In this document: positions 636-44,790 of the stretch, in pieces
How the letters are laid out: every line of letters starts with the position of its first letter
Position numbering within the stretch: position 1 is the first letter of the stretch
Source: Dehalococcoidia bacterium
GTDB taxonomy: Bacteria > Chloroflexota > Dehalococcoidia > Lucifugimonadales > Australimonadaceae
Length of the DNA stretch: 64,000 nucleotides
Reading direction: 5' to 3'
Assembly (NCBI GenBank): GCA_022820645.1
Contig: JAJEFD010000019.1
Span: forward strand, 64,279 to 128,278
The notes under the pieces: model-generated
Told to the model about the DNA's origin: nothing
The model's input: only the letters and a program-made list of their open reading frames with translations
The model's database searches: none
Made by a program: the position numbers and the translations under genes

Positions 636-867
636 GTCGTTCCTGCGGAGGCAGGAACCTCGCATCCCAGCGGGGCGGAGCCCCGTCATTCTCGCGCAGG
701 CGGGAATCCAGGGTGCGCGGGCAGTGCACGCGGCGGTGCTTGATCCCCTCTCCCTTGAGTGGAGAGGGCTAGGGAGAGGGTGGACCGGCGGTGCGGGGTA
801 GGGTGCCTGGTGTAGGGGCATCCTCGTGGGTGCCCTTGCCCCGCTCATGGTGAGCCTGTCGAACCGC
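636..867. repeat. Composite REP array 1: REP-A variant 636-659, REP-A 685-711, REP-B 745-782, REP-C 809-835, REP-D-like 844-867
   Basis: Each unit recurs elsewhere in the window with a hairpin-forming core. The array sits directly left of the AT-shifted islet. Confidence 0.8.
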
Positions 868-893: not shown

Positions 894-1523
894 CTACAAG
901 GGAAAGTTACGATATTTCATAGATATCAACGATGCATCAATCTCGCGTATGCCTTTAACTATGGTAGCGACAGTCTGATAATCGTCTTGTGGGTCAAATC
1001 GTCGCAAGGCTCTGCCAGACTTGTGAGCAGACTCCCCACGATTCTGTCCAAACTCGTCAATCTTCTGAATCCATTCTCTATTGATGTTTGCCTCCCGAAT
1101 GCCAACCGGAAAGAGTAATCGGAGTACATTTTCTTCTCTGATACCATGATTGGTGGCTCTCGCAAATTTGCTAAATTCTTGATGGGCCTTCTCTAGTTTG
1201 GATAACAAGTCCGGCCTAGATGCAAGGTCCAATCTAGTGGGGATATCGTGATTGTTATTCGCAGAGTAGGCCATGAGCGACACGGTTGGACGTCCAATAC
1301 GTCCCATGTTTTTCCATTCTTGAACGCATCGAGTTGCAGCATCTGTAGTGATTTCCTCAAGGCAGGCTTCTATTTCAGCATGAGCGAGGAGCCTATACCC
1401 AATAGCAAGGTCATACTCGCGATCAGAGTATGTTCCTGTCGGGCTAAACTCCCGTGGGAGGAAATGTCGACGTATTTCGCGTAGTCGACCTCTGAACTGC
1501 CGGTACCGGGAAGAGTTGGGCAA
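894..1523 (-). CDS. HEPN-like putative RNase (Rx4H motif), partner of the DUF262 protein
   Basis: 209-aa ORF in an AT-shifted segment. The motif NRGESAH (R162-x4-H167, nt 1023-1040) matches the HEPN Rx4-6H signature. The TTG start lies only 5 nt after the stop of the upstream DUF262 gene. The fold assignment was not verified by HMM. Confidence 0.55.
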   Translation of the reverse strand: MPNSSRYRQFRGRLREIRRHFLPREFSPTGTYSDREYDLAIGYRLLAHAEIEACLEEITTDAATRCVQEWKNMGRIGRPTVSLMAYSANNNHDIPTRLDLASRPDLLSKLEKAHQEFSKFARATNHGIREENVLRLLFPVGIREANINREWIQKIDEFGQNRGESAHKSGRALRRFDPQDDYQTVATIVKGIREIDASLISMKYRNFPL

Positions 1524-1528: not shown

Positions 1529-2761
1529 CTACACCTGAATTCTGCCGCCGCTCATAAATGGAACAGCGATGTCGATACCTATGGCATCCTTCAGTACTCT
1601 ACCCCATGCGCTAAGTCTAATGAATGTGGCATCAACGGTCTTCGTAGTGCTCTGAATGGATTCGCGAAAGTCTCGATCCGAATCGCAAAGCAATCTGTAT
1701 GTCTCTTTCACGGCTTCTGCCTTGTCATGTGCGGCGGTTGCTATATCGCTTTGGGAGAAATAATAGGTCATCACATCGAACACAGCTCGATTAAATGGGC
1801 CCTGATACCTGTTTGAATCCCATCTCCGGAACGCTCCTGTATCAAATATACTAATCGTCGCATCAATCGCACGGTCGCAGAGTACAGCAACCTCTCTAAG
1901 CTCGGATTCTCTGTCAAGCCACTGCTGATTAAGAATATCGCAAGTGGAGTCTAGAAAGGCCTTAAGATCACCAGAATACTCGTGAAGCCGCTCATGGAAT
2001 CCAAAGAATCTCAGCAATATTTCTACATCTCGCATTCGGAAGTCGGGGGCTTTTAATTTTAGAGCACGTTTGATGGAGTCGCTATCAGCACTGTGGTCAG
2101 CGATGAAATCAATGAAAGGACCAGGTCGTAGTGCTTGCCTCAGTTCTTGGGTTGATAGGGGTAAGTTGCCAGTATTCAACCTGAGGAACACTCGGTACAA
2201 GAAGTTCTCATCGGTCCAATTCCGGATGATGACAGTTCTAATGGGCTGATTCTCATACGCAGGAACCTCTTTAGATAGAGCAGGGTCAACCATCATGTCA
2301 GCAAGATTCTTGCCTCCTAAATCAGGCTTAACGTTAAGGCCAGTGAGTCTGAACGTTTTGAACTCGGTATCTTCATCATCGGAAGCAAACCTGCGAAGGG
2401 CAAGTAACCTCTGCTTTCCGTCAATGACGATGTATTGGCCCCGGTTATCTGTCTTTTCGGCCAGCACTAACTGAGGCACGGGCAAACCTAAGAAGAGAGA
2501 TTCTATGAACGCACTCTTTCGTTCATCAGTCCATGCTTCCCTACGCTGAAACTTGGGATTCAAATCAATGTTGCCCTTTTTCAGCTGGGTGACAATGGTT
2601 TCTGTGGTCCAATCGGATGACGTAACCACTGCTTGAATGGGTTGAACGTCCAGATCTTTCTCTCGGAGGCCGGCAGGATCTTCATCGAAAAGATTGGCTA
2701 TGTCTATGGTCTCATCGTTTTCTGTAACCATATATCTTCCTTCCGTTTCCTGTGTTTGCAT
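1529..2761 (-). CDS. DUF262 (ParB-like nuclease/NTPase, GmrSD N-terminal type) domain protein
   Basis: 410-aa ORF. It carries the FQRREAW...LFLGLPVPQLVL...IDGKQRLLAL motifs (nt 2408-2551) typical of DUF262 (FQR / DGQQR). No obvious DUF1524/HNH C-terminal domain is present. An alternative start at ATG 2731 is preceded by GGAAGGAAG. Confidence 0.75.
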   Translation of the reverse strand: MQTQETEGRYMVTENDETIDIANLFDEDPAGLREKDLDVQPIQAVVTSSDWTTETIVTQLKKGNIDLNPKFQRREAWTDERKSAFIESLFLGLPVPQLVLAEKTDNRGQYIVIDGKQRLLALRRFASDDEDTEFKTFRLTGLNVKPDLGGKNLADMMVDPALSKEVPAYENQPIRTVIIRNWTDENFLYRVFLRLNTGNLPLSTQELRQALRPGPFIDFIADHSADSDSIKRALKLKAPDFRMRDVEILLRFFGFHERLHEYSGDLKAFLDSTCDILNQQWLDRESELREVAVLCDRAIDATISIFDTGAFRRWDSNRYQGPFNRAVFDVMTYYFSQSDIATAAHDKAEAVKETYRLLCDSDRDFRESIQSTTKTVDATFIRLSAWGRVLKDAIGIDIAVPFMSGGRIQV

Positions 2762-2922
2762 TCTTCGAGTCCAATGTGCGGCCTAAACGGATTGTGTCAT
2801 CATACTGAGGACGTGCAAATTTAGTCAATTGCGGTGATATCCAGCTGTGCTATGGTGAATTGGCGATAACCCCCTGCTCCCCCATCCCCCCATCCTCCCC
2901 ACCCCACGTCAAATCTCTGACA

Positions 2923-2966
2923 TGCGCCCGTTGCGCAGACGCCACACCCCTCCCTACGATGGGTGC
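2923..2966 (+). promoter_or_regulatory. Predicted promoter with palindromic operator of ATPase paralogue 1 (probably leaderless)
   Basis: TTGCGC (2931-2936), an 18-nt spacer, then TACGAT (2955-2960), with the ATG 6 nt after the -10 box and no SD. The palindrome TGCGC-CCGTT-GCGCA (2923-2937) overlaps the -35 box. The whole block is conserved upstream of paralogue 2. Confidence 0.45.
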
Positions 2967-4523
2967 ATGACTACGCAACCAATGCCAAGGCCCGAACACA
3001 TCATCACGCCCGACACCCTCCCGCCGGCGGAAAGGGCATACGTGGAGCGGCTCATCAGGGCCCTTCAGTGCGGAGTGCCCGGCTGCTCGTGTGCCGCAGG
3101 CCGCAAGTTCCACTGTCCGGCGCATCCCAACCCTGAAATAGCGACCCTCACCGTTGGCTTCGACCCCGGCTACGGCTATTCGTTCCACTGCCCCCGCTGC
3201 CCGCTCAACAAGATTCTCGAAGCCCTTGCGAAGCGGGGCCTCGCCCCTGAGTCGGAGCTGTTCACCTCCGCTGGCGCGCAGGACGCGGGGCTCGACCCCT
3301 TCTCCCTCTTCATCCCCCAGCCGCCGGACTGGCTCTGGCCTAACCGCATCCCTCTGGGCCAGCTCACCCTCATCGCTGGCTACCCCTCCTCCGGCAAGAC
3401 CTCCATCGCCCTCGACATAGCCGCCCGTGTCTCCCGTGGGGCATCCGCCCCCGACCAGCCGGGCGCCGCCTTCCCGAACGCTCCCGTTCTGCTGGCGACC
3501 TTCAACGGCAACCCCAGGGCCGGCGTACTCCCCGTCCTCCGCGCCTTCGGCGCGAATCTGGAACGCGTCTACTTCGCCGACCTCCTCGCTCAGAGCCACC
3601 CTGCCGACTACTACCCTGACGACCCGCCGCGCGAGGTAGACATCGAGGCGGCACGGAAGCAGGAGAAGGATCGCCAGTTCTACGTCTGGCTCAACAGCTT
3701 CCGCAAGCCGCCTACCATCGCCGAACTCACCGCACCGCCTCGGACAACGATTCCAACCCCTATGCCCTCACTCAGGCTTGGCGCTCCATGGCCCGGACTC
3801 AACCACACCATGACGCGGCTCGCCAACATGATCGCCCTGGGGAGCGCGGCCCTTCTTGTCGTCGATCAGGTGGAAGACCTGGCCGCCATGCACCGCGCCC
3901 AGGTGGCGACGGTCCTCGGCATGCTCAAGGCGCTCGCCGCCCGCTCCGGCGCAGCCGTCATCGCCCTCACCCACAACCCCGCGCAGAACTACCCGCGCGC
4001 CGTCACCGCCATGCAGCATCGCTTGGCGCAAGCCTCCGTCGTCTTCACTACCGCCGTCGTGGGACCCGGCGAGCGCCGCTTCCTCGTCCCTCTCCGTCCT
4101 GCCATGAGCGACGACGCCCCCGCCATCCCCTTCGTGCTTCCCCCTTCACCCGTCATTCCAGCGGAGGCTGGAATCCAGAGCAGCTCGCCCGACGCCTTCT
4201 CCGTCGCCTGGCGCAAACCCGTCTTCCCCGCCCACATCAAGGCCCTCGCTGACCCCACGCGTGACTACGGCGCAAGGACCCGCGCTGCTCAGGCATTCAT
4301 CACCCGCGCCCTCGCCGACGGCCCCCGCCCCGCCGCTGCGGTCGAGCGCGAGGCCGCTATGCAGGGCATATCCCGGCGCACCCTCTTCCGCGCCCGCGCC
4401 ACTTGCGGCATCAGGTCTACTCGCATCGGTGCCTCAGGAGGCCCGGGCTCGGGCACATGGCACTGGTCGCTCCCGCCGCGAAACACTCTGCAACAGGATG
4501 AGACACCGGACGATGGCGCATAA
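2967..4523 (+). CDS. Zn-ribbon / AAA_25-type (RepA/RecA-like) P-loop ATPase / C-terminal HTH protein, paralogue 1
   Basis: N-terminal CGVPGCSC..HCPAHPN..SFHCPRCP resembles a primase-type zinc-binding module. Walker A is GYPSSGKTS (3378-3401) and Walker B-like is LLVVDQVED. The C-terminal segment ARTRAAQAFITRAL..ISRRTLFRAR is HTH-like. The start is set at the ATG conserved with paralogue 2 (MTTQP). Confidence 0.7.
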   Translation: MTTQPMPRPEHIITPDTLPPAERAYVERLIRALQCGVPGCSCAAGRKFHCPAHPNPEIATLTVGFDPGYGYSFHCPRCPLNKILEALAKRGLAPESELFTSAGAQDAGLDPFSLFIPQPPDWLWPNRIPLGQLTLIAGYPSSGKTSIALDIAARVSRGASAPDQPGAAFPNAPVLLATFNGNPRAGVLPVLRAFGANLERVYFADLLAQSHPADYYPDDPPREVDIEAARKQEKDRQFYVWLNSFRKPPTIAELTAPPRTTIPTPMPSLRLGAPWPGLNHTMTRLANMIALGSAALLVVDQVEDLAAMHRAQVATVLGMLKALAARSGAAVIALTHNPAQNYPRAVTAMQHRLAQASVVFTTAVVGPGERRFLVPLRPAMSDDAPAIPFVLPPSPVIPAEAGIQSSSPDAFSVAWRKPVFPAHIKALADPTRDYGARTRAAQAFITRALADGPRPAAAVEREAAMQGISRRTLFRARATCGIRSTRIGASGGPGSGTWHWSLPPRNTLQQDETPDDGA

Positions 4524-4535
4524 ACTTGAAAACAC

Positions 4536-4682
4536 TGGCACTCTTGCGCTCTTAAGGGCGGGAAGCAGGCCACGGCCTTGTAAACACCCCCGATTAAGAG
4601 TGCCAAGAGTGCCAGATCGACGTACCCCGTCACTCGTTGAACCAGTGCTTAGAGTGCCAACACCAACCCCCGTTGGCACCCT
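4536..4682. repeat. Iteron-like repeats (AGAGTGCCA, 5 copies) around a conserved 18-nt box
   Basis: TGGCACTCT at 4536-4544 (inverted), the box GGGAAGCAGGCCACGGCC at 4560-4577, tandem AGAGTGCCA at 4597-4605 and 4606-4614, AGAGTGCCA at 4651-4659, and TGGCACCCT at 4674-4682 (inverted, 1 mismatch). Confidence 0.6.
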
Positions 4683-4705
4683 TAATCCCCTCCGCCGCCA
4701 ACCTC

Positions 4706-4965
4706 GTCATTCCAGCGAAGGCTGGAATCCATGGAGTGGCGCAGAGAACCGCTCGCAGGGGTGGTCAGGGGTGTCCGATCCCCTCTCCCTACAAGGGGAG
4801 AGGGCTGGGGCGAGGGTACTGCGGGTGGGGCATTGGGAGACTGTCATGCTGAGCGGAGCGCAGCGGAGTCGAAGCATCTCTCGGGTGCCCGGTGTAGGGG
4901 CATCCCTTGTGGGTGCCCTGCCTGGCCCACCTCTCCCCTTGGGAGAGGGGCTGGGGGTGAGGGTG
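4706..4965. repeat. Composite REP array 2: REP-A 4706-4731, REP-B 4780-4816, REP-D 4843-4885, REP-C 4891-4918, REP-B 4930-4965
   Basis: Direct sequence matches to the other copies. The array explains the spurious 247-aa N-terminal extension of ORF 4261-5718. Confidence 0.8.
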
Positions 4966-5001
4966 TGGCGTATTGCCCGGTTTCGCGCTAACGTTGCCCC
5001 C

Positions 5002-5718
5002 ATGCGCGAGAAGGTCTACCCCGACTTCGCCGCCGCCGTCGCCGACATCCCGGACGGGGCGTCCATCATGCTCGCAGGGTTTGCCGGGCCCGGCACCGCG
5101 CGGAACCTCATCGCCGCGCTCTACCGCCAGGGCGCGAAGGGGCTCACGCTCATCTCCAACACGCCCGGACGCTGGCAGGACGATCGCGTGGACTCCGGCC
5201 TGCTCGTGAAGGAGGGGCGCGTCGCGAAGGTCCACGCCGCGTTCACGGCGTCGCCGCACCCGTCCGTGCCGTCGCCGTTCACCGACCTGTACGAGGCGGG
5301 GAAGATCGAGGCGGAGCTGATGCCGCAGGGCACGCTCGCGGAGCGCATCCGCGCCGCCGGGGCGGGTATCGCCGCGTTCTACACGCCCACCGGCGTCGGG
5401 ACGGAGATGGCGGACGGCAAGGAGACGCGCGTCTTCGGCGGCAGGGAGTACGTGCTGGAGACTGCGCTCCACGCCGACTACGCGTTCGTCCGGGCGCGCC
5501 GCGCCGACCGCTTCGGCAATCTGCAGTACCACCGCACGCAGCGCAACTTCGGCCCCGTCATGGCGCGCGCGGCGAAGGTGACCATCGTCGAGGTCGACGA
5601 GCCGGTGGTGGAGGAGGGCGACATCGACCCCGACCACGTGCACACGCCGGGCATCTTCGTCGACCGCATCGTGGCCGTCCCGCCGGACGGGATCCAGGAG
5701 GTACCGCCCGAGCGATGA
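5002..5718 (+). CDS. scoA: 3-oxoacid CoA-transferase subunit A
   Basis: MREKVYPDFAAAVADIPDGASIMLAGFAGPG...; typical family I CoA-transferase A subunit. A 4-nt overlap couples it to subunit B. Confidence 0.85.
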   Translation: MREKVYPDFAAAVADIPDGASIMLAGFAGPGTARNLIAALYRQGAKGLTLISNTPGRWQDDRVDSGLLVKEGRVAKVHAAFTASPHPSVPSPFTDLYEAGKIEAELMPQGTLAERIRAAGAGIAAFYTPTGVGTEMADGKETRVFGGREYVLETALHADYAFVRARRADRFGNLQYHRTQRNFGPVMARAAKVTIVEVDEPVVEEGDIDPDHVHTPGIFVDRIVAVPPDGIQEVPPER

Positions 5719-7969: not shown

Positions 7970-8050
7970 CCCTCACCCGCGCGCTTAAGCGCTTTGCCCT
8001 CTCCCCCAGGAGAGGGGGACAAGGGCACCCACGAGGGGCGCCCCTACACC
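7970..8050. repeat. REP-B (7970-8017) plus inverted REP-C (8023-8050)
   Basis: CCCTCACCC..GCCCTCTCCCCCAGGAGAGGGGG followed by GGGCACCCACGAGGGGCGCCCCTACACC. Confidence 0.75.
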
Positions 8051-8068
8051 GGGCAGGAAGGCCACCTC

Positions 8069-9500: not shown

Positions 9501-11272
9501 CGGGGCTGGGTCAGCACGTCGACGATGGCGGGCTTGCCTGAGCGGACGACAGCTATCGCCTCGTCGAGCGCGGGGCCGAGCGCGTCCGGCGCTGACACCG
9601 GCCCGAACCCGGCGATATCGAACGCCCGCGCGAGGGTCGCGAAGTCCGGCGCGGGGTCGGTGATCTGGATGCCGATGCCCTTGTTCTCGACCGGGCGGTC
9701 GCGCCAGCGGGCGATGCGCTCCTGGTGCTCCTCGTCGTTGTAGTACGAGCGGTTGTTGAAGACGACGACGAGGAGCGGGATGTTGCAGTGCGCCGCGGTC
9801 CAGAGCGCGTTGGAGGTCATCAGGAAGTCGCCGTCGCCGACAACGCTGATGCAGAGCCGCCCGGTGTCCCTGTAGGCGAGCGCGGCCCCGACCGACGACG
9901 GCAGGCCGTAGCCAACCCCGGCGCCGCGTCCGCCGCCGAGCTCGTGGGCGTGCTCCGTGATCTCGAGTACGTCGCGCACGCGCCTTCCGTGCGAGTTGAC
10001 CATCGCCCACTCCGTGCCCTTTACCCGCTCCGCGATCTCGCCGTAGAGCCGGGCTGCGGAGATGGGCGCGGCATCCCAGTTGTCGCTCACCCACTTCGCA
10101 GCCGCCGCGCGCATCTCCTCGTGCATCGCGGTCACGCGCGCCCGGCGCTCCTCGACCGCAGCGTTGCCCGCGAGCCGCTCTCGCAGCCCGGCGGTCAGGA
10201 GCGGGACCGCCTGCGCGGTGTCCGCCGCGATGGGCACCTCCACGGGCAGCAGCCACTGGTTGTCGGTCACCCAGTTCTGCCGCTCCTGGTCGAGCAGCGT
10301 GACGTGGATGAGCCGCGTTCCCTGCGGCACGGCGAGTTGCAGCGCGCCGCGCTCGCGCACCGACGGCCCGAGCGGCACGCCGAGGCTCGGCACGTCCAGT
10401 GCGAGCACCACGTCGGCGTCGGCCAGCGCGCGCTCGCGGACGCCGGTGAGGTCAAGCGGGTGCGTGTTCGGGAAACCGAAGCGCCCCTCGGCGTCGACGA
10501 CGGCGCACGCGAGCGTGTCCGCCAGCTCGACGACGGCGGGCAGCGCCGACGGGTTGCGCCCCACCTCGCCGACGACCATCACGGGCCACGACGCTCCGGC
10601 AAGCACGTCGACCGCCTTCGCGAGCGCGTCCGGGTTCGGGGCGGGCGGGGCAGGCGGCTGGAAGAGCGATACGTCCGGCACGGGCAGGGCCTCGTCCATG
10701 CGCTGCTCCTGGATGGTGCTGTCCAGGCAGACGTACACGGGCCCCTTCGGGTCGGTCATCGCGGTGCGCACGGCGCGCAGCAGCGACTCGGGCATCGCCT
10801 CGATGCTGGCGGGCTGGTCGTCGAACTTGACGTAGTCGCGGACGGCGTTGCCCTGTACGAGCGCGGTGTGCACCCAGTCGGTGGAGCGGCGCTGGTTGGC
10901 GTCCTGTGGTCCGCCGCCGCCGAGGTTGATGATGGCGGAGCGGTCGCACCAGGCGTTGAAGATGGCCATGGATGCGTGCTGGAGGCCGACGACGTTGTGG
11001 AGGCCGGTGGCGATGGGCTCGCCGGTGACGCGGAAGTATCCGTTGGCGACGGCAACGGCGATCTCCTCGTGGGTGCAGAGGACCATCTCCGGGCCGCCGG
11101 AGCCGAAGTTGACGATGGAGTCGTGCAGGCCGCGGTATCTGGCGCCGGGGTTGAGGGCGATGTACTTCACGCCGAGGGCGCGCAGCACCTCGACCATGTA
11201 GTCGGAGCCGTAGACGGCGCTGCTGGGCGTGCTGCCGCCGCTCATGGGGGTGTTCGCTGTCTTCGTGGTCAT
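9497..11272 (-). CDS. Thiamine-pyrophosphate-dependent enzyme (acetolactate synthase-like family)
   Basis: N-terminal TPP-pyrimidine domain HEEIAVAVANGY..., C-terminal GDGDF...NN TPP-binding motif. The start is set at MTTKT because the upstream part of the ORF runs into REP-B. Confidence 0.8.
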   Translation of the reverse strand: MTTKTANTPMSGGSTPSSAVYGSDYMVEVLRALGVKYIALNPGARYRGLHDSIVNFGSGGPEMVLCTHEEIAVAVANGYFRVTGEPIATGLHNVVGLQHASMAIFNAWCDRSAIINLGGGGPQDANQRRSTDWVHTALVQGNAVRDYVKFDDQPASIEAMPESLLRAVRTAMTDPKGPVYVCLDSTIQEQRMDEALPVPDVSLFQPPAPPAPNPDALAKAVDVLAGASWPVMVVGEVGRNPSALPAVVELADTLACAVVDAEGRFGFPNTHPLDLTGVRERALADADVVLALDVPSLGVPLGPSVRERGALQLAVPQGTRLIHVTLLDQERQNWVTDNQWLLPVEVPIAADTAQAVPLLTAGLRERLAGNAAVEERRARVTAMHEEMRAAAAKWVSDNWDAAPISAARLYGEIAERVKGTEWAMVNSHGRRVRDVLEITEHAHELGGGRGAGVGYGLPSSVGAALAYRDTGRLCISVVGDGDFLMTSNALWTAAHCNIPLLVVVFNNRSYYNDEEHQERIARWRDRPVENKGIGIQITDPAPDFATLARAFDIAGFGPVSAPDALGPALDEAIAVVRSGKPAIVDVLTQPR

Positions 11273-25054: not shown

Positions 25055-26833
25055 CTACCGTTCGCCGACCTCGGTGACGACGTCCACGAGGGCGACGCGA
25101 CCGTTCTCGACGACCTCGCGCTTGGCGCGTTCGAGGGCGCCGCGAAGGTCGGCGGGGTCGTCGACGGGGCCCTCGGCCCACGCGCCGAAGGAGCGCGCCA
25201 TGCCCGCGAAGTCCACGTACGGGTCGTCGATGTCGATGCCGATGGTCCTTCTCTCGATGGGCCTGCCGCGCACCTCCGCCATCAGCCCCTGGTGGCCGAG
25301 GTCGTTGCCGTAGGTGCGGTTGTTGTACATGACGATGAGCATGGGGATGCGGTGGTGGACCGCCGTCCAGACCGCCGCGGGCGTGAAGAGGAAGTCGCCG
25401 TCCGACTGGATGTTGATCGTGAGCCGCCCCTTGTCGCGGTTCGCCAGCGCGACGCCGAGCGCGTGGCCGAAGCCCATGCCGAGCCCGCCGCCGCCACGAG
25501 ATTCGATGACCTGGTGCGGGGCGTTGTAGTCCCACAGCCGCTCCGTCCAGCCGCGCAGGTTGCCGTTGCCGAGCACCCAGTCCGTGTCCTTGACGACCTC
25601 CCACATCTCCGACGCGAGGAAGGGCAGGGCGATGGGCGACTCGCCGGAGCGGTCCGCGACGACCTTCGCGGCCTGTTCGTGCGCCCCGTCGTGCAGGGCG
25701 GCGACGCGTGCATGGCGCTCGCGCAACGCGCTCGAACGGTCGGGGCCGTCGTTGAGGCGGCGTTCGACGAGGTCGGCGAGCGCGGGGATGGCGAGCGCGG
25801 TGTCGGCCTGCACCGAGAGCGAGGTCGGGTAGAGGCCGCCATAGTCCGCCGTCCAGCTGCGGACGGCGAGCTGGCGGAGCGACACGTCGATCAGTTTCGC
25901 GCCGGGCGGCAGCAGGTGTTGCAACTGGCGGGCGCGGTAGTCCTGTCCGGTGAGCGACTGCTGGAGGTCGTACACGTCGAGCGCGAGCACAACGTCGGCT
26001 TCCTGCAGCAGTTGGCGCTTGGAGGTCGTGACGTTCAGGGGGTGGCGCGACGGGAAGTTGTAGAGGTCGCCGCCGGAGACGACGGGCAGCGAGAGCAGCT
26101 CGGCGAGCCGCACGAGGCCGTTGGTCGCGTCCTCGGAGCGTCCGAGGAAATCGGCGAGGACGACGGGGCGCTGCGCGTCGACGAGCAGTCCCGCTGCGAG
26201 GTCGAGCGCGTCGGGGTCCGCCTGGAAGCGCGTCGGCTTCGGGAAGGCGCTGAAGTCGGGCATCTCGAACGGCTCGGTGAGCTGCTGCTCCTGTGTCGAC
26301 ACGTCGAAGTTGACGTAGACCGGGCCCTCCGGCTGGCTGGTGGCGATGTGATATGCGCGGATGAGCGACTCGACCGACGCGCCGACGCTGGCGGGCTGAT
26401 CGTCCCACTTCACGTAGTCGCGGACGGCGTTGCCCTGCACGTTGGCGGTGTGTATCCACTCGATCCACGGTCGGCGCTCGTCGGCGGCCATGGGGCCGGT
26501 GCCGCCGAGCACGAGGACGGCTGAGCGGTTCGCCGAGGCGTTGAAGATGGCCATCGTCGCGTGGAGCAGGCCGACGACGTTGTGGACGTAGGCCGCCATC
26601 GGCTTGCCCGCGGCCTTGCCGTAGCCGTGCGCGACGGCGACCGCGATCTCCTCGTGCGGGCAGAGGATGAGCTCGGGGCGCTCGTTGCCGAGGTAGTTGA
26701 CGAGCGAGTCGTGGACGCCGCGGAAGCTGGCGCCGGGGTTCATCGCGACGTACTCGATGCCGAGGCCGCGCAGCGTCTCGACGATGACGTCGGAGCCCCA
26801 CTCGGCCTTGCTGATGCGCCCGTTCGTGGTCAT
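25055..26833 (-). CDS. Thiamine-pyrophosphate-dependent enzyme (second paralogue)
   Basis: HEEIAVAVAHGY..., GDGDFLFT...NN TPP motif; paralogous to 9497-11272. Confidence 0.8.
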   Translation of the reverse strand: MTTNGRISKAEWGSDVIVETLRGLGIEYVAMNPGASFRGVHDSLVNYLGNERPELILCPHEEIAVAVAHGYGKAAGKPMAAYVHNVVGLLHATMAIFNASANRSAVLVLGGTGPMAADERRPWIEWIHTANVQGNAVRDYVKWDDQPASVGASVESLIRAYHIATSQPEGPVYVNFDVSTQEQQLTEPFEMPDFSAFPKPTRFQADPDALDLAAGLLVDAQRPVVLADFLGRSEDATNGLVRLAELLSLPVVSGGDLYNFPSRHPLNVTTSKRQLLQEADVVLALDVYDLQQSLTGQDYRARQLQHLLPPGAKLIDVSLRQLAVRSWTADYGGLYPTSLSVQADTALAIPALADLVERRLNDGPDRSSALRERHARVAALHDGAHEQAAKVVADRSGESPIALPFLASEMWEVVKDTDWVLGNGNLRGWTERLWDYNAPHQVIESRGGGGLGMGFGHALGVALANRDKGRLTINIQSDGDFLFTPAAVWTAVHHRIPMLIVMYNNRTYGNDLGHQGLMAEVRGRPIERRTIGIDIDDPYVDFAGMARSFGAWAEGPVDDPADLRGALERAKREVVENGRVALVDVVTEVGER

Positions 26834-31811: not shown

Positions 31812-31821
31812 GGGGCACCTC

Positions 31822-31848
31822 GTCATTCCAGCGGAGGCTGGAATCCAG
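31822..31848. repeat. REP-A
   Basis: GTCATTCCAGCGGAGGCTGGAATCCAG. Confidence 0.8.
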
Positions 31849-31860
31849 AATTGTTGTGGG

Positions 31861-37764: not shown

Positions 37765-38406
37765 ATGCCGTACGACACGCTCGACCCGAAGAAGACCGGA
37801 CTCGTGTTCTTCGACATGCTCAACGTCTATTTCCGGGGCTCCAGCGAGGAGAACCAGCGCAGGATGGAGCCTATCGTGGCGAACTGCGTGAAGGTGCGGG
37901 AGGTGGCGTCCGCACTCGGCGTGCCGTCGTTCTACCCGAAGGCCGACCACCGGTCGGACGGGATGGACTCGGCGCTCATCTACTCCGACACGAACTACGC
38001 GCTCGAACCCTGGCCGGACCCGGAGCAGGGCTTCACCGCGGCGTTCCGCAACGTGCACCATGGCAGCTGGACGTCCGAGGTCATCGACGAGCTCGCGCCG
38101 ACCCCGGACGACTACCTGATCCCCAAGCACCGGTGGAGCTCGTTCCACCAGACACACCTCCAGTTGAGCCTGCGCACGCGGGGCATCGACACCATCGTCC
38201 TGTTCGGCGGCGCGATCCACATCGGCGTCGCGAGCACGGCCTACTCCGCGCGGGACCTCGACTTCAACATCGTCGTCGTCAGCGACGCCTGCTCCGGCCC
38301 GGACGAGAACCTCAAACTCTTCATGGAGCGCATCTTCCCGATCTTCACGCGCGTCCGCACGGCTGACGAGGTGGTGGAGATGTTCAAGCGGGGCGCCACG
38401 GGCTAG
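37765..38406 (+). CDS. Isochorismatase-family cysteine hydrolase
   Basis: GLVFFDM..., K.RWSSF..., ...VVSDAC catalytic Cys pattern. GAGGAGG lies 6 nt upstream of the ATG. Confidence 0.7.
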   Translation: MPYDTLDPKKTGLVFFDMLNVYFRGSSEENQRRMEPIVANCVKVREVASALGVPSFYPKADHRSDGMDSALIYSDTNYALEPWPDPEQGFTAAFRNVHHGSWTSEVIDELAPTPDDYLIPKHRWSSFHQTHLQLSLRTRGIDTIVLFGGAIHIGVASTAYSARDLDFNIVVVSDACSGPDENLKLFMERIFPIFTRVRTADEVVEMFKRGATG

Positions 38407-38413
38407 CGTACCC

Positions 38414-38609
38414 GTCATTCCCGCACCGGCGGGAATCCAGAGTGCGCGGGCAGCGCACGCGGGGAAGGGATGGGTTGGGGTGTTGTCATGCTGAGCGTAG
38501 CCGAAGCATCTCTCGGGGCGCTGTCCGGTCTAGGGGCATCCCTTGTGGGTGCCCTTCCCCACCTCGCCCTCTGGGAGAGGTCAACGCGCCTGCGCGGCGG
38601 GTGAGGGTC
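38414..38609. repeat. Composite REP array: REP-A 38414-38440, REP-D 38485-38517, REP-C 38527-38554, REP-B 38557-38609
   Basis: Direct matches to the other copies. Confidence 0.8.
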
Positions 38610-40160: not shown

Positions 40161-40607
40161 ATGGACTTCAGCTACACCTACAAGGTCAACACGCCGCCGG
40201 ACGCGCTCTGGGCGTTCGTGACGGACATCCCCGCCGTCGGCATGTGCATCCCCGGCGCGGCGGACGTCGCCGAGACGGACGGGACGTACACAGGAACGGT
40301 GAAGGTGCGCGTCGGACCGGTCGCGCTGGGGCTCGCGGGCAAGCTGTGGATCGACTCGCGGGACGACGCCGCGATGCGCGTCTCGATGACCGGCGAGGGC
40401 GCGGACCGCAAGGTGCCGGGCAACGTCCGGGTGAAGATCGACATGGCGGTCGAGGACGCGGGCGACGGCGGCAGCAACCTCGTCGTGCACTCGGACGCCA
40501 ACATCATGGGCAAGCTGGGCGAGTTCGGCCAGGGCATCATCAAGCGCAAGACGGACGGCATCATGCAGGAGTTCGGCCGCAACCTGACCAAGCGGGTAGG
40601 GGGCTAA
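40161..40607 (+). CDS. SRPBCC/CoxG-family protein
   Basis: MDFSYTYKVNTPPDALWAFVTDIP...GTVKVRVGPV...GKLGEFGQGIIKRKTD; CoxG-like. Confidence 0.6.
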   Translation: MDFSYTYKVNTPPDALWAFVTDIPAVGMCIPGAADVAETDGTYTGTVKVRVGPVALGLAGKLWIDSRDDAAMRVSMTGEGADRKVPGNVRVKIDMAVEDAGDGGSNLVVHSDANIMGKLGEFGQGIIKRKTDGIMQEFGRNLTKRVGG

Positions 40608-40612
40608 CGACC

Positions 40613-40782
40613 CGTCATTCCCGCACCGGCGGGAATCCAGAGTGACCGGGCAGGTCACACGGTGGGGTGTGGGAGTGGGCGGCCTGTCATTTCGAGCGAA
40701 GCCGAGAAATCTCTCGGGCTGCCTGGTGTAGGGGCATCCCTTGTGGGTGCCCTTGCCCTCATCGTTCCAGCAAAGCTGGAAT
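40613..40782. repeat. Composite REP array: REP-A 40613-40639, REP-D variant 40685-40717, REP-C 40724-40751, REP-A variant 40760-40782
   Basis: Direct matches. The array lies left of the second AT-shifted islet. Confidence 0.8.
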
Positions 40783-40932
40783 CTATGACACCAGCCCCTT
40801 GCAACCGTGCATCCTTCGCCTGCTACCATACCGCCAACCTTCACAGGGGAGCGCAGGCATGTGCTTGACCACCCTCGGATCAGATGACCGAATGCACTCG
40901 GAGCCACGCCCTAGTAGATCAATGGTGGTCCG

Positions 40933-41814
40933 ATGAGTCGAGCAGCGTCACCCGTCTACCTCGACAACGTAAACGCTGAGGGCGCATCCTCCCCTGTAAG
41001 GCAGCGACGTCATCCGCAAGGCAAGCGGAAGATTGCCTTCGGGTGGTACGGCGGGAAGTTCAGCCACCTTGCATGGCTGCTTCCACTGTTGCCTCAGGCG
41101 CACCACTACTGCGAGCCCTTCGGTGGTTCAGCGGCGGTGCTCCTGAACCGTCCTCCTTCACCGGTAGAGACATACAATGACTTGGATGGTGAGGTAACGA
41201 CCTTCTTCCGGATGCTCCGTGCTCAGCCTGATGAGCTTGTCCGCCAGATTGCCCTAACCCCCTTCTCGCGGGAAGAGTTCTACATTGCCTGTCAGAGCGA
41301 AGAGGGCCTCACCGACCTTGAGCGTGCGAGGCGTTTCTTTGTGCGTGCTCGACAAGTGCGGACTGGTCTTGCTCAAACGGCCACGCTAGGGCGATGGGCA
41401 AATTGCAAGCAGACGAGCCGCGCAGGAATGTCTGGGGTCGTATCTCGCTGGCTCGGAAGCGTGGATTCTCTACCAGAGATTGCTGAGCGCCTTGTCCGGG
41501 TACAAATCGAGAACAGGCCCGCTGAGGATGTAATTCGCCTCTACGACCACAGTGACACGCTCTTCTACTGCGACCCTCCCTATCCCCATGAGTCGCGAGG
41601 CGACACACATGCCTACGGGGACGAAATGAGCGACCACGAACACCGCACCCTCGCGAAGTTGCTGAATGAGGTCAAAGGGAAGGTAGCCGTTTCTGGCTAT
41701 CGCTGTGAACTCATGGAAGATCTCTACAGCGATTTCCGGCGAATCGATGCCCCTGAGAAGTTGTGCCATTCGGTAAAGTCCGCACGGTTCGAGTCCCTGT
41801 GGGTCAACTATTAG
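40933..41814 (+). CDS. Dam-family (D12 class) N6-adenine DNA methyltransferase
   Basis: WYGGK, EPFGGSAAV (FxGxG SAM site) and DPPY (41572-41583). GC content is visibly lower than in the flanks. Confidence 0.85.
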   Translation: MSRAASPVYLDNVNAEGASSPVRQRRHPQGKRKIAFGWYGGKFSHLAWLLPLLPQAHHYCEPFGGSAAVLLNRPPSPVETYNDLDGEVTTFFRMLRAQPDELVRQIALTPFSREEFYIACQSEEGLTDLERARRFFVRARQVRTGLAQTATLGRWANCKQTSRAGMSGVVSRWLGSVDSLPEIAERLVRVQIENRPAEDVIRLYDHSDTLFYCDPPYPHESRGDTHAYGDEMSDHEHRTLAKLLNEVKGKVAVSGYRCELMEDLYSDFRRIDAPEKLCHSVKSARFESLWVNY

Positions 41815-41823
41815 TGAGGCTTT

Positions 41824-42903
41824 ATGCAGGTTGACTACGAAGTGAGCCGGGCACTCCTGGATGAACGGTTCGCTGCTGTGTCCACGGCAGCGATTCAAGG
41901 CGCTCGTCCGGCTACCCCTGCGAGCGTGGATACCTCCCTTAGGACATTATTCGAATCCAGCACTCAGTCCTACCGCGAAGCCTTGCTAGGCTGTGCGGTT
42001 GCCAGATGGTATGACCGACGAATCGACATCACGCTTCCGTATGTAGGGCTGGGTGACTTAGCATTTAGCGGTCGAATGCTAGACCAGAAGGTGGTAAATC
42101 CGTTCCTCCGCGACAACCATATCCCTTGTTCTGGTAACCCCTACCTCGCCGTGTTCAGGCGCTCGGTCGCATTTAATGCTGACACACGCAGCGGCCTACT
42201 TGATAAAGAAGGATATGACTCCTTTCTGTCCCTAATCAAACACGTTCGCACTCTAAGCAAAAGCAACATTGTGAATTTCATTGACCACCTACTGTTCCAC
42301 TTCTACGACCTGCGTGAGGCATCGCAAGTGCCCATAGCCCAGCTTGGCCGCATCAGCCTTGAACAGATAGCGACGCTGATGGACGGGCTGATAGCCATCC
42401 CGAGTGGCGGACGATTCCCTATGTACCTCGTTGAGGCTGCACTCGTGGGCATTCGAGGGCGATTCAACCTTGGCTGGGAGATTGAAGTACAAGGGATCAA
42501 CGTGGCGGATGCTCCGGGTGGGGCTGGAGGAGACGTGACCGTACGCGAGAACGGCGTGATTGCGTTTGCTGCCGAGGTGACGGAACGCGAAGTAAGCTCA
42601 GAGCGAGTTGTGGCGACCTTCCAGACGAAGATTGCCCCGAATGCCATTGCCGATTACCTCTTTCTGATTACAGATGGTGTCGCTGAACAAGCCCGCATCC
42701 AAGCTCGATCTTATTTTGCGCAAGGTCACGAGGTGAACTTCATCCAGATCAAGGACTGGATTCACCAGACCCTCGTGACTGTTGGGGCTGCGGGCAGGGA
42801 TGCCTTCTTCACTGCCCTGATGGCGCGGTTAGCGGATGAAGAAACTCCGAAGGCGATGAAGACGGCATGGAATGACCAAGTGGATCAGCTCACTCGCGTT
42901 TAG
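41824..42903 (+). CDS. Uncharacterised protein, candidate restriction endonuclease partner of the methyltransferase
   Basis: 359 aa, starting 9 nt downstream of the MTase gene on the same strand and in the same AT-shifted block. It has a possible PD-(D/E)xK-like segment GGDVTV-x10-AAEVTER. The family was not verified. Confidence 0.45.
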   Translation: MQVDYEVSRALLDERFAAVSTAAIQGARPATPASVDTSLRTLFESSTQSYREALLGCAVARWYDRRIDITLPYVGLGDLAFSGRMLDQKVVNPFLRDNHIPCSGNPYLAVFRRSVAFNADTRSGLLDKEGYDSFLSLIKHVRTLSKSNIVNFIDHLLFHFYDLREASQVPIAQLGRISLEQIATLMDGLIAIPSGGRFPMYLVEAALVGIRGRFNLGWEIEVQGINVADAPGGAGGDVTVRENGVIAFAAEVTEREVSSERVVATFQTKIAPNAIADYLFLITDGVAEQARIQARSYFAQGHEVNFIQIKDWIHQTLVTVGAAGRDAFFTALMARLADEETPKAMKTAWNDQVDQLTRV

Positions 42904-42972
42904 GCATTCCCAACTACCTCAGAGCGGGTAGACAGCGTCGCTCCCCCGATCCTGCCCATCCCCATTGTGACA

Positions 42973-43016
42973 CGCGCCCGTTGCGCGGTCGTCACGCCCC
43001 TCTCTACGATGGGTGC
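42973..43016 (+). promoter_or_regulatory. Predicted promoter with palindromic operator of ATPase paralogue 2
   Basis: TTGCGC, 18 nt, TACGAT, 6 nt, ATG. The palindrome CGCGC-CCGTT-GCGCG shows a compensatory change relative to copy 1. Confidence 0.45.
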
Positions 43017-44642
43017 ATGACTACGCAACCCGTCCCTGCGCCCGAACAAACCTATACGTTGGACACCCTCCCGCCCCAGGACAGGGCATACGCCGACCGT
43101 CTCACCCGCGCCCTTCGCTGCGGTGTACCCGGCTGCGGGTGCGCCGACGGCCCCATGGTCCACTGTCCCTCCCACAGCCACGCTGAAGTCCCGACGCTCA
43201 CCGTCTCCTACGACCCCGACCGCGGCTTCTCCTTCCAATGCCTCGTCTGCCCCCCGTTCCGCATCAAGGATGCTCTCGTGAAACGCGGCATCGCGCCGGA
43301 GGGGGAGTTCTATATGTCCGGCGCCGCGCAGGCAGCCGGGCTCCAGCCCTTCAGGTTCCTTATCCAGCAACCACAGGACTGGCTCTGGCCCAACCGCATC
43401 CCTATCGGCAAGCTCACTCTTATCGCCGGATACCCCTCATCCGGTAAAACGTCCATCGCGCTCGACATCGCCGCCCGTGTCTCACGAGGCGCAGCCGCCC
43501 CCGATCAGCCGGACGCCCCGTTCCCTTCCGCCCCCGTCGTCCTCGCGCCCCTCAACGGCAACCCGAAGGCCGACATCCTCCCCACACTCCGCCATTTTGG
43601 TGCCGACCTCGACCGTGTCTACCTTGCAGACCTCCTCTCCCCCACGCACCCCGTCGACTACTACCCCAACGACCCGCCCGATGACGAGGACGACGGGTAC
43701 TACTACGAAGAAGACGACAATCTCGACGATGACGGCGACGACGACGTCGAGTACCTCTTCGACAACGACGGCAACGAGATAACTGTTCCCCGCCGCAAGC
43801 CGGTCGGCATGAAAGCCCCCGTTCGCGACCCGTTCTGGACGCCCGCCACCTCCGGCTCGAAACTCACCGCGCCCTGGCCCAGCCTCGACAAGGTCATGGG
43901 GCGGCTTGCCAACTACATCGCTGAGGGGAAAGCCGCCCTCCTCGTCGTCGACCAGGTCGAAGACCTTGCCGCCATGCACCGCACCCATGTCGCAACTGTC
44001 CTGGGTATGCTCAAGGCGCTCGCTGCGCGCTCGGGTGCGGCGGTCGTCGCCCTTGCCCACAATCCCGCGCAGAACTACCCCCGCGCCGTCACCGCCATGC
44101 AGAACCGCCTGCCTCTCGCCTCCGTCGTCTTCACCACCGCCGTAGTCGAACCGGGCGGACGCCGCTTCCTCGTCCCCCTCCGCCCCGCCATGAGCGACGA
44201 TGCCCCTGCCATCCCCTTTGCGCTGCCCCCCTCAACCGTCATTCCCCCTTCATCCGTCATTCCCGCGAAGGCGGGAATCCAGAGCCCCCCTTCCGGCTTC
44301 ACCGTCGCTTGGCGCAAACCCGTCTTCCCCGCGCATATGAAGGCCCTCACCGAGCCCCGCCCTAACGACGGCGCGAAGACCCGCGCCGCGCAATCCCTCC
44401 TCACCCGCGCGCTCGCCGACGGCCCCCGCCCCGCCGCAGAGGTCGAGCGCGAGGCCGCTCTGGTCGGCGTCTCGAAGTCCACCCTGGTCCGGGCTCGCGC
44501 GCTCTGCAACGTCAAAGCGTTCCGCGTCAGCATCGCTAACGGCCCCAACGGCGCGGGGGCGTGGCACTGGTGCTTGCCCCCACGCAACACTTTGGAACGG
44601 AATGAGACGCCTGCAACATCCGCGGAAATCGTAAACACATGA
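43017..44642 (+). CDS. Zn-ribbon / AAA_25-type P-loop ATPase / C-terminal HTH protein, paralogue 2
   Basis: Colinear with 2967-4523, with the same Cys/His pattern, Walker A GYPSSGKTS (43428-43451) and LLVVDQVED. It carries an acidic low-complexity insert and an embedded REP-A. Confidence 0.7.
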   Translation: MTTQPVPAPEQTYTLDTLPPQDRAYADRLTRALRCGVPGCGCADGPMVHCPSHSHAEVPTLTVSYDPDRGFSFQCLVCPPFRIKDALVKRGIAPEGEFYMSGAAQAAGLQPFRFLIQQPQDWLWPNRIPIGKLTLIAGYPSSGKTSIALDIAARVSRGAAAPDQPDAPFPSAPVVLAPLNGNPKADILPTLRHFGADLDRVYLADLLSPTHPVDYYPNDPPDDEDDGYYYEEDDNLDDDGDDDVEYLFDNDGNEITVPRRKPVGMKAPVRDPFWTPATSGSKLTAPWPSLDKVMGRLANYIAEGKAALLVVDQVEDLAAMHRTHVATVLGMLKALAARSGAAVVALAHNPAQNYPRAVTAMQNRLPLASVVFTTAVVEPGGRRFLVPLRPAMSDDAPAIPFALPPSTVIPPSSVIPAKAGIQSPPSGFTVAWRKPVFPAHMKALTEPRPNDGAKTRAAQSLLTRALADGPRPAAEVEREAALVGVSKSTLVRARALCNVKAFRVSIANGPNGAGAWHWCLPPRNTLERNETPATSAEIVNT

Positions 44643-44653
44643 GATTGTTGGTT

Positions 44654-44790
44654 CCTTGGTCACGGGAAGCAGGCCGTGGCCATGGAAACGCCCTTCAGAA
44701 GGAGACCAAGGATGTCAAAACAGGCCCGTTCTCCACTCCTGGGATCCAGACCAAGAATGTCATCCGGTGCCCCTGTTGACACTCTTGGTC
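44654..44790. repeat. Iteron-like repeats (AGACCAAGRATGTCA) around the conserved 18-nt box
   Basis: CCTTGGTC at 44654-44661 (inverted, partial), box GGGAAGCAGGCCGTGGCC at 44664-44681, AGACCAAGGATGTCA at 44703-44717, AGACCAAGAATGTCA at 44748-44762, TGACACTCTTGGTC at 44777-44790 (inverted, 13/14). Confidence 0.6.

Follow-up and report, generated by a model that had tools for sequence, protein, structure and literature searches.

The DNA analysed here (the window) is a stretch of 64,000 nucleotides (nt) from a Dehalococcoidia bacterium, positions 64,279 to 128,278 of contig JAJEFD010000019.1 in assembly GCA_022820645.1. It carries two paralogous genes for an ATPase of the AAA_25 family, and behind each gene lies an array of six short repeat units, R1 to R6, arranged around a conserved core box. 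We refer to the array with its core as the module and to its two occurrences as locus 1 and locus 2, and we address what the module is and how it relates to the protein encoded beside it. The features of locus 1 are as follows.

2885-2966, plus strand: promoter-like region of paralogue 1 and left limit of the conservation of the unit
2967-4523, plus strand: paralogue 1, encoding a putative zinc ribbon, an AAA_25 ATPase, a variable linker and a C-terminal winged helix
4521-4523, plus strand: stop codon of paralogue 1, after which the locus 1 module begins
4523-4688: locus 1 module, about 165 bases, six repeat units around a conserved core
4523-4533, plus strand: AT-rich motif AACTTGAAAAC, directly left of the first unit, R1
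4535-4546, minus strand: inverted unit R1, reverse complement CAAGAGTGCCAG
4547-4557, minus strand: degenerate inverted unit R2, reverse complement CCTTAAGAGCG, with the TT-AAG 5' half retained
4560-4590, no strand: core box GGGAAGCAGGCC-AC-GGCCTTGTAAACACCCC, a near-palindrome
4592-4605, plus strand: direct unit R3, GATTAAGAGTGCCA
4602-4614, plus strand: direct unit R4, GCCAAGAGTGCCA, overlapping R3 and tandem with it at 9-bp spacing
4631-4637, plus strand: CACTCGT motif, family consensus YACTCST
4647-4659, plus strand: direct unit R5, GCTTAGAGTGCCA
4674-4687, minus strand: inverted unit R6, reverse complement GATTAAGGGTGCCA, the last conserved element

The features of locus 2 are listed in the same way.

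43017-44642, plus strand: paralogue 2, with the architecture of paralogue 1
44640-44642, plus strand: stop codon of paralogue 2, followed by the module
44626-44791: locus 2 module, in a fixed register common with locus 1
44640-44650, minus strand: R1, reverse complement CAACAATCTCA
44651-44662, minus strand: R2, reverse complement TGACCAAGGAAC
44664-44693, no strand: core box GGGAAGCAGGCC-GT-GGCCATGGAAACGCCC
44695-44705: position of R3, degenerate
44703-44717, plus strand: R4, AGACCAAGGATGTCA
44734-44740, plus strand: CACTCCT motif
44748-44762, plus strand: R5, AGACCAAGAATGTCA
44777-44791, minus strand: inverted unit R6, reverse complement CGACCAAGAGTGTCA, the end of the module

An earlier sequence-only reading of the window had reported five copies of a 9-mer after paralogue 1. 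All five were found, AGAGTGCCA being exact at 4536 (-), 4597 (+), 4606 (+) and 4651 (+) and carrying one mismatch at 4674 (-); the sixth, degenerate inverted unit at 4547-4557 had been overlooked. There are no further exact copies of AGAGTGCCA elsewhere in the window, and matches with one mismatch occur across it at chance level, so that the signal is the clustering of five copies in 147 bp. At locus 2, AGACCAAGRATGTCA lies at 44703 (+) and 44748 (+), with a copy bearing two mismatches at 44777 (-). The layout given for this locus, inverted-box-direct-direct-inverted, reflects the same architecture, although the supposed first inverted copy is in fact two degenerate units, and the two direct copies are present but not tandem, their register being that of R4 and R5 of locus 1. 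Outside the modules the k-mers are not frequent: within the window exact units occur nowhere but in the module, and at the 15 loci with long units (11-16 nt) the surrounding ±6 kb contained no additional copy of these.

In both loci the order is TTGWAAAC, two inverted units, a core of about 30 bp, two direct units, CACTCST, a direct unit and an inverted unit. Two inverted and two direct units oppose one another around the core, and the further direct/inverted pair follows about 45 bp downstream. The shared 18-mer that had been noticed between the inverted and direct copies, GGGAAGCAGGCCNNGGCC, occurs in the window at 4560 and 44664 only, the chance expectation with up to two mismatches being 0.21 matches; its conservation extends further than had been noted, running about 12 nt beyond the 18-mer through TTGKAAACRCCCC. 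The central 30 bp form a conserved box of about 65% G+C, and AT-rich sequence is limited to the TTGWAAAC sub-motifs (4523-4533 and 4578-4585). The family consensus of the AT-rich motif is AACTTTTGAAAAC / AAGTTGTAAAC, of the TTGWAAAC type, and the motif is kept at the DNA level, being coding or non-coding depending on the locus. Self-BLAST places the DNA homology between the two loci from 2885/42942 to 4589/44693, ending just past the box. A scan of 4400-5100 found no sigma-70 promoter and no intrinsic terminator. Inner units R2 and R3 often differ systematically from the outer units of the same module, CTCAAGAATCTCA standing inside where ATCAAGAGTGCCA stands outside, for example; the difference is seen in the window at 4547-4557 and 44651-44705 and in loci L001-L004, L012, L021-L023 and L033, and it suggests a second specificity or graded affinity.

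In uncultivated Dehalococcoidia/SAR202 Chloroflexota the ATPase family is both abundant and present in multiple copies. Searches yielded 157 cluster representatives, most of the 120 listed being 58-87% identical to the query, and 80 loci were obtained from 185,579 species genomes, nearly all in Dehalococcoidia metagenome-assembled genomes (MAGs) and with no more than six copies per chromosome. Close relatives on metagenome contigs are the same loci as in the MAGs and not an independent set. The box lies 20-120 nt past the gene in about 58 of the 67 homologues with an intact C-terminus, a count for which a deliberately loose pattern matched 60 loci, two of them (L026 and L057) spuriously. Of the 54 loci that were aligned, comprising the Dehalococcoidia/SAR202 loci plus the window, 48 have the full module architecture in a fixed register, the window's two copies being counted among them. 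Repeats therefore do stand beside the homologues, whose lack of them the sequence-only reading had named as grounds for abandoning it.

The order of elements in the family is AACTTTTGAAAAC, inverted R1 and R2, GGAAGCAGGCC-RY-GGCCTTGRAAACRCCCC, direct R3 and R4 9 bp apart, a spacer of about 18 nt, YACTCST, direct R5, a spacer of about 12 nt and inverted R6. Column conservation is bimodal, with the core, the AAG and CA of the units and the ACTC at 94-100% and the specificity positions at 31-65%. In the main clade the core box is 96-100% invariant, the central RY dinucleotide excepted, and the ACTC of YACTCST (window 4632-4635) is 94-100% invariant; the GGAAGCAGGCCRYGGCC core is limited to the Dehalococcoidia clade. 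Across homologous loci the distance from stop codon to box varies between 24 and 62 nt while the register of the module is unchanged, and since the module lies past the stop codons, the box is conserved at the DNA level, one of the two levels (DNA or RNA) that had been proposed. To the right, conservation ends 2-5 nt past R6, and in several loci the stop codon of a convergent housekeeping gene comes next. Upstream it covers only about 100 nt before the ATG, with unrelated sequence further out (40 loci aligned). The conserved unit, of about 1.9 kb, consists of promoter region, gene and array.

Two groups of relatives depart from this plan. A side clade (L048, L063 and L071), 42-51% identical, keeps the GGAAGCAGGCC-NN-GGCC box, and its opposed units are replaced by four to five purely direct 19-mers, GGGGAACTTTT-CACTCGTA, spaced about 37 nt apart in a classical plasmid-like iteron layout, with a YACTCST motif after every iteron (L048:7440-7800, L063:7370-7730 and L071:7340-7680). 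In a second clade at 46% identity (L046-L056, L060, L066, L072 and L075) the core is the variant GGAACAAGGCCGTGGCCTGCT, YACTCST points the other way (CACGAGTG), and AAG units in opposed sets, for instance CAAGATCCGG, persist.

The unit consensus is about 13 bp, NN-AAG-NNNN-YCA. Helix 3 and the wing of the winged helix were tabulated against units R1-R6 in 44 loci. The helix 3 residue that follows T/A-L predicts the bases 3' of AAG, and the wing loop predicts the dinucleotide 5' of it, as listed below.

Helix 3 F: AGTG-CCA after AAG
Helix 3 V: RATG-TCA after AAG
Helix 3 R (in K/R-R-T-L-R): GKGG-CCA after AAG
Helix 3 H: ATTY-C after AAG
Helix 3 A: GATG-CCA after AAG
Helix 3 K: GAGT-GCA after AAG
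Helix 3 R (in K-G-T-L-R): RTGT-GCA after AAG
Wing xNGAG: CC before AAG
Wing GGxHGxGE: TC before AAG
Wing PGVxxGxG: AC before AAG
Wing short GPGxG, or GTHxGAG: TT before AAG

Statistics were computed at the level of the 15 helix-by-wing combinations. Wing and 5' dinucleotide shared 1.89 of 1.89 bits of mutual information (p = 5e-5), helix and 3' half 2.26 of 2.57 bits (p = 5e-5). Neither of the crossed pairings between protein module and DNA part was significant over the same combinations (p = 1.0 and 0.97). Three wing types are found with the F helix and four with the R helix, and each half of the DNA unit tracks its own protein module. Mere shared ancestry is hard to reconcile with helix and wing that assort independently, each tracked by its own part of the DNA unit. 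Such covariation is what one would expect if a winged helix read the DNA directly, its helix lying in the major groove and its wing against the neighbouring flank. The sequence-only reading had asked whether differences in the recognition helix track differences in the repeats, and the outcome in the 44 loci was strongly positive and modular. Its expectation that the sites co-evolve with the helix-turn-helix specificity of the adjacent protein is likewise borne out by the p values for both helix and wing. We consider it very likely, from these sequence comparisons, that the array consists of the cognate double-stranded DNA sites (iterons) of the C-terminal winged helix of the upstream ATPase. 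At locus 1 the helix is of type F, the wing a short GPG and the unit TT-AAG-AGTG-CCA; at locus 2 the helix is of type V, the wing NGAG and the unit CC-AAG-RATG-TCA. Each copy has a private specificity (F/TT at locus 1, V/CC at locus 2), and co-resident modules should therefore not cross-react.

Paralogue 1 begins at 2967 with the family start MTTQP and has an intact Walker A motif (GYPSSGKT), the recognition helix RRTLFRARA and the wing loop GASGGPGSG; paralogue 2, which is 64% identical to it, has the recognition helix SKSTLVRARA and the wing loop IANGPNGAG. Pfam AAA_25 matched both above its curated cut-off of 27 bits, paralogue 1 at 54.4 and paralogue 2 at 50.9, with weak DnaB_C, KaiC and phage DnaB-helicase matches around the Walker A motif, and no Pfam family was found at E <= 10 for the N-terminal 113 aa or for the C-terminal domain alone. 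A sequence search of the PDB returned RecA (the stronger match, in the Walker A region) and then RepA of RSF1010 (1g8y; weak, E = 0.4). The full-length AlphaFold2 (AF2) model was poor, with a predicted local distance difference test score (pLDDT) of 60, and its Foldseek matches were to KaiC, RadA and Rad51 cores at E >= 6e-3. The C-terminal 75 residues or so are predicted by AF2 to form a winged helix in the order H1, H2, H3, beta-hairpin at a pLDDT of 80-94, in which helix 3 of paralogue 1 takes residues 485-495 and the wing 498-516 (pLDDT 80-89). The solved folds nearest to this domain are the PadR, LmrR and MarR winged helices, with template-modelling (TM) scores of 0.55-0.61. The N-terminal 110 residues or so contain the invariant pattern C-x4-C-x-C ... 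H-C-P-x-H ... C-x2-C, which we take to mark a primase-type zinc ribbon after the pattern of DnaG and T7 gp4; this putative assignment is based on the Cys/His pattern only.

Upstream of paralogue 1, the region 2885-2966 contains TTGCGC and, after an 18-nt spacer, TACGAT ending 8 nt before the ATG, an arrangement that suggests a promoter and a leaderless or near-leaderless mRNA. TTGCGC is preceded by a leader with 9-bp periodic CCATCCTGT-type (CCATCCT-type) motifs. In the window and in its equivalents in L001-L074 the leader is class-independent, in contrast to the downstream units, and no class-specific unit was found in the conserved promoter region.

The ATPase gene itself receives insertions. 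A short palindrome, GTCATTCCAGCGAAGGCTGGAATCC, resembling a repetitive extragenic palindrome (REP) or miniature inverted-repeat transposable element (MITE), is inserted in frame in the linker between ATPase and winged helix and translated as VIPAEAGIQ; in the window the element occurs at 4147-4179, at 4701-4731 just past the module, and at 31816-31849. Homologues show zero to several linker insertions (VIPAKAGIQ, SFLRRQEPRSP) at the same place (columns 470-540 of alignment A1). In six loci of four genomes (L035, L036, L039, L041, L043 and L044) the gene is interrupted after WRKPVF, at an identical insertion point and with a common junction sequence, and the ATPase match stops at residue 435. 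The insertion in L043 (7852-10211) encodes an IstA-like protein (rve plus Mu-transposase C) and an IstB-like protein and is an IS21-family element, which seems to target the ATPase gene family site-specifically. A group II intron, considered as the interruption in these six loci, was rejected: there was no Rfam match, L043 carries the IS21-family element and the other five share its junction. The gene of L042 is interrupted at a different place by an IS3-like element.

Distant relatives in other phyla show a comparable layout. In L080 (Planctomycetia) the homologue is a 696-aa fusion of Prim-Pol and AAA_25, with a tyrosine integrase 1.4 kb upstream, a type I restriction subunit downstream and, directly after the gene, 4+4 opposed 9-bp CCAAGATGG units. 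The homologue in L077 (Terriglobia) lies 1 kb from a tyrosine integrase and is directly followed by units CAAAGAATCCA. In both, the repeats are tandem AAG-containing units of 9-10 bp, and a short spacer separates their opposed sets. Of 33 metagenomic relatives at 22-30% identity, 24 carry a 9-mer at least four times, and as many as nine times, within the 270 nt that follow the gene; of about 64 coding controls, 14 reach four. The gene-then-iterons layout in distant relatives is therefore an old trait of a primase/helicase-type family on integrative elements. The Prim-Pol + AAA_25 proteins are true distant homologues, 40-49% identical in the best segment, which spans the ATPase and the C-terminal domain, and they share the order of a gene followed by opposed tandem repeats of AAG-containing 9-bp units; they differ in having Prim-Pol and an adjoining tyrosine integrase, where the Dehalococcoidia clade has the putative zinc ribbon and no integrase. 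The ATPase is a distant member of this Prim-Pol/AAA_25 replicase group in which the primase is replaced by the zinc ribbon. No paper found on AAA_25 plus iterons or on SAR202 mobile elements describes the ATPase family.

Both ATPase copies stand at the right edge of lower-G+C islets of about 4 kb, whose cargo is as follows.

894-1523, minus strand: islet 1, HEPN-like gene (Pfam)
1529-2761, minus strand: islet 1, GmrSD_N / NsnA-like nuclease gene (Pfam; PADLOC NsnA, E = 4e-69)
40933-41814, plus strand: islet 2, D12 methyltransferase (Pfam; PADLOC MTase_II, E = 5e-53)
41824-42903, plus strand: islet 2, putative restriction enzyme (PADLOC REase_II, E = 3.5e-5)

The cargo of islet 1 (894-2761) has a G+C content of 0.58 against about 0.68, and that of islet 2 is a type II restriction-modification pair; the orientation of the cargo differs between the islets. 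The position of islet 2, between a COXG-like gene and the oligoribonuclease gene (orn), is occupied by ATPase islets in five genomes, in which the flanks are about 90% and the ATPases about 76% identical, three specificity classes occur and the cargo is entirely different in each. In the related genome L091 the site is empty, COXG-like gene and orn being convergent and 25 nt apart compared with 4375 nt in the window, and L090 has there an unrelated 552-aa gene without a Pfam match (window 40609-44983 vs L091:7541-7567 and L090:7550-9730). Over about 45 loci, the upstream neighbours are housekeeping and defence-type genes (TIR, trypsin-like, methylases, DUF4238, PadR), and those downstream are housekeeping genes, unrelated and often convergent, secA occurring in six cases and orn in four. 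Near the Dehalococcoidia copies, neither an integrase nor a transposase was present among the 25 most frequent Pfam families of each search (115 upstream and 128 downstream open reading frames), nor did phmmer with the integrases of the two distant loci find an integrase there (about 45 loci).

The published replication system closest in anatomy is that of the pathogenicity islands found in Staphylococcus aureus (SaPIs), in which the C-terminal winged helix of Rep recognises island-specific iterons, 6-12 iterons lie directly downstream of rep, and at least two stand on each side of a central region in opposite directions (PMC9371898). Our loci resemble SaPIs and other phage-inducible chromosomal islands (PICIs) in an initiator that doubles as helicase (predicted here), in winged-helix specificity, in 3' iterons in opposed sets and in forming a small chromosomal island. 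They differ in several respects. SaPI Rep is an AAA+ protein (SF3/MCM-like) and the AAA_25 protein is RecA-like, which makes them analogues and not homologues; the SaPI centre is AT-rich, the Dehalococcoidia centre a conserved box of about 65% G+C; SaPI units are of 5-6 nt, ours of about 13 bp with a two-part code; and SaPIs carry integrase, regulators and packaging genes, the Dehalococcoidia islets none.

Three further systems are instructive. In the alpha protein of phage P4, a single polypeptide contains a primase-type region that binds zinc, a helicase and, at the C-terminus, a winged-helix domain for origin binding; the P4 iterons are direct and inverted. A (here putative) zinc-binding region and a winged helix in one polypeptide, and repeats in both directions, are shared with our loci; P4 alpha differs in its catalytic primase, its SF3 helicase and its two separate cis sites (ori and crr), and no sequence similarity of P4 alpha to the ATPase was detected in the phage collection. 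RSF1010, of incompatibility group Q (IncQ), has an iteron-based origin, and its RepA is the nearest replication helicase among the solved structures noted above; there, however, one protein binds the iterons (RepC), and two others are the helicase (RepA) and the primase (RepB'). The parS sites of P1 and P7 have boxes in both orientations around a conserved central site, in P1 a host-factor site, and their specificity is switched by few bases or residues. Two-orientation repeat boxes, a conserved central site and a position directly after the gene of the binding protein recur in our loci, whereas these have no ParA/ParB and a (predicted) RecA-like ATPase as the binding protein.

We propose that the array is a candidate origin or helicase-loading site of a RecA-type initiator, an assignment that we put at a little better than an even chance. 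In function it would be of the SaPI Rep-ori or P4 alpha-ori kind, in descent of neither, the core of the ATPase being RecA-like and not AAA+/SF3. The proposal of a cognate origin or helicase-loading site is made because the anatomy matches that of the published SaPI initiator-helicases, and origin iterons are favoured because of the helicase-like protein, the opposed sites around a core, the 3' position and the Prim-Pol-fused relatives. An operator role is disfavoured because the promoter region has no class-specific unit and the downstream neighbours are unrelated and often convergent. As regards the usual features of an iteron origin, both window loci have a cluster of six units within about 165 nt past the stop codon, opposed repeat sets flank a central region (R1 and R2 inverted, R3 and R4 direct), and the covariation matches each initiator's specificity to its own repeats. 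In the mechanism we envisage, the ATPase would be a self-loading initiator-helicase, whose recognition helix would read the 3' half of the unit and whose beta-hairpin wing would read the two bases 5' of AAG. Through the winged helices, RecA-type rings would be anchored to either side of the core; the zinc ribbon and ATPase, or else a host factor, might then melt or engage the core and/or the flanking TTGWAAAC motifs, so that replication or unwinding of the islet would start at the core. The invariant core and YACTCST would most simply be targets of the invariant parts of the protein (zinc ribbon, ATPase) or of a host factor.

Several observations weigh against an origin. An AT-rich, easily melted centre is lacking, and no classical DNA-unwinding element is evident. 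The fold matches of the full-length AF2 model establish only a RecA-like core and not a helicase, and the Dehalococcoidia proteins have no primase catalytic domain, only the putative zinc ribbon. No integrase, excisionase or packaging gene was found within 6 kb of the Dehalococcoidia copies, and no terminal overlap indicative of circularity in short contigs carrying the gene; with neither excision genes nor circular forms seen, an integrated 4-kb islet has no evident means of replicating or reason to do so. Exclusion driven by incompatibility was not detected, as one of 41 co-resident pairs shares a class against 2.06 expected (p = 0.38). Finally, sequenced plasmids, phages and viral contigs hold no close relatives, only matches at the P-loop level or at 22-37%.

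It is unlikely, yet has to be taken seriously, that the cognate sites serve a non-replicative role, as a centromere-like or segregation anchor, as a roadblock to transcription or a regulator of it, or as the place where a DNA translocase loads; this translocase would keep the neighbouring defence cargo silent, protect it or sense it. Covariation of this kind can prove cognate recognition only, not replication, and it is joined by the P1 parS-like architecture, the syntenic chromosomal positions of the islets across species without excision genes, a central box that is G+C-rich and not a DNA-unwinding element, and the defence cargo, together with weak PADLOC matches to mad8 and PDC-M07A (E about 1e-5). 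A parS-type site, however, would come with a ParA-type ATPase and a ParB-type or ribbon-helix-helix partner; no ParA/ParB-type partner and no recurrent neighbouring gene is present, the AAA_25 gene alone being conserved. The sites lie downstream of the gene, with no class-specific unit in the promoter or elsewhere within 6 kb, the unrelated housekeeping genes beyond them leave nothing consistent to regulate, and the cargo of the two islets is oriented differently. The Prim-Pol-fused distant homologues, residing in integrase-bearing elements, point to replication instead. Improbable in our view is a terminus of a mobile element, being a recombination or transposition end, or an origin of transfer (oriT), which the ATPase would recognise so as to help the islet to move and in which the GGCC-RY-GGCC core would be a cleavage or crossover site. 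Such a terminus would explain why conservation stops 2-5 nt past the last unit, abutting the stop codon of the flanking gene, why the islet is an insertion relative to the empty site of L091, why the cargo is wholly different between syntenic loci, with ATPases at about 76% and flanks at about 90%, and why the near-palindromic core varies at its central dinucleotide. Yet recombinase, transposase and relaxase genes are missing from the Dehalococcoidia copies and their neighbourhood, no second end with the same units was present within ±6 kb and no transposase was recurrent there, no target-site duplications or att-like direct repeats were seen at the islet junctions, and several identical crossover cores per chromosome would invite rearrangements; RecA-like AAA_25 proteins are not known to act as strand-transferases.

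That the conserved feature is a structured RNA or single-stranded DNA appears very improbable. In this reading R1R2 would pair with R3R4 in a hairpin whose loop contains the box, R5 would pair with R6 in a second one, the apparent repeats would be no more than halves of stems, and the feature would be transcribed as the 3' untranslated region of the ATPase mRNA or as a small RNA. The inverted layout does give a stem of about 20 bp with a loop of about 44 nt plus a stem of about 13 bp, and complementarity is retained although the arm sequences differ between loci; but one and the same unit builds both hairpins and is tandem and direct within an arm, and an RNA fold requires neither. Identity of the direct pair R4/R5 (0.79) equals that of the distant inverted pair R1/R5 (0.79), with R5/R6 at 0.87 and the between-class value at 0.61. 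Mismatches between R5 and R6 are without wobble bias, 21 fitting the plus strand and 26 the minus strand with 26 transversions; there is no pairing-dependent covariation, and Rfam (4300-5000, E <= 1) gave nothing in the module and a single chance-level match outside it (4927-4964). Residues of a DNA-binding domain, moreover, predict the unit sequence, and the side clade has direct repeats only. As for chance, or the genome-wide REP/MITE-like load of a G+C-rich genome, the window is full of short dispersed repeats, one of them directly after the module (4701-4731), and matches to the 9-mer with one mismatch occur window-wide at chance level; this explanation, whose probability we regard as virtually nil, is refuted by exact copies confined to the module, an 18-nt box at two loci only and recurrence of the same register in about 50 loci of other genomes. 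With the defining features of each class looked for and absent, including the integrase, regulatory and packaging modules of PICIs or phage satellites in islets that hold cargo plus the ATPase alone, the array belongs neither to the PICI-like satellites or transposon ends nor to the par sites or known RNAs.

What sets the system apart is a clean recognition code in two parts, a core that is conserved yet rich in G+C, and the link to integrase-less defence islets at hotspots of an uncultivated lineage of ecological importance. A more speculative proposal, which we think rather unlikely, is that these are replicative defence islets, in which a domesticated initiator-helicase with a private origin, placed at the edge of chromosomal hotspots, would amplify or unwind the variable defence cargo beside it in situ, for example during phage attack; separately, the winged helix would carry a simple two-part code that can be recombined. 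If the origin assignment is true, this would be the first described replication-type module in SAR202/Dehalococcoidia, an abundant uncultivated marine and sponge-associated group without genetic tools, and the gene-plus-origin cassette of about 1.9 kb would be a starting point for a shuttle vector. The occurrence of integrase-less islets with variable defence cargo at hotspots raises the questions of how islands are exchanged and whether local replication aids defence. The 15 two-module combinations, matched base for base by two DNA sub-sites, amount to a clean natural experiment; with one helix residue setting a tetranucleotide and the wing a dinucleotide, they give a recognition code that is open to direct test and could be re-programmed, and many presumably orthogonal pairs.

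Some further observations concern the surroundings. Dispersed repeats of about 50-170 nt, including a ...GGTGTAGGGGCATCCCTTGTGGGTGCCC... type, border both islets and other intergenic regions (window 682-846, 38400-38566, 40601-40764, 4862-4948 and 7970-8056). Paralogous genes unrelated to the array occur in tandem or dispersed as units of about 1.4 kb at 51973-52970 and 59845-64000 (66-72% identity) and as a 1.6-kb pair at 9619-11225 and 25186-26813 (68-74% identity). About 4 kb upstream of the window start, the source contig carries a polyketide synthase gene of 3317 aa (L081:1-2798).

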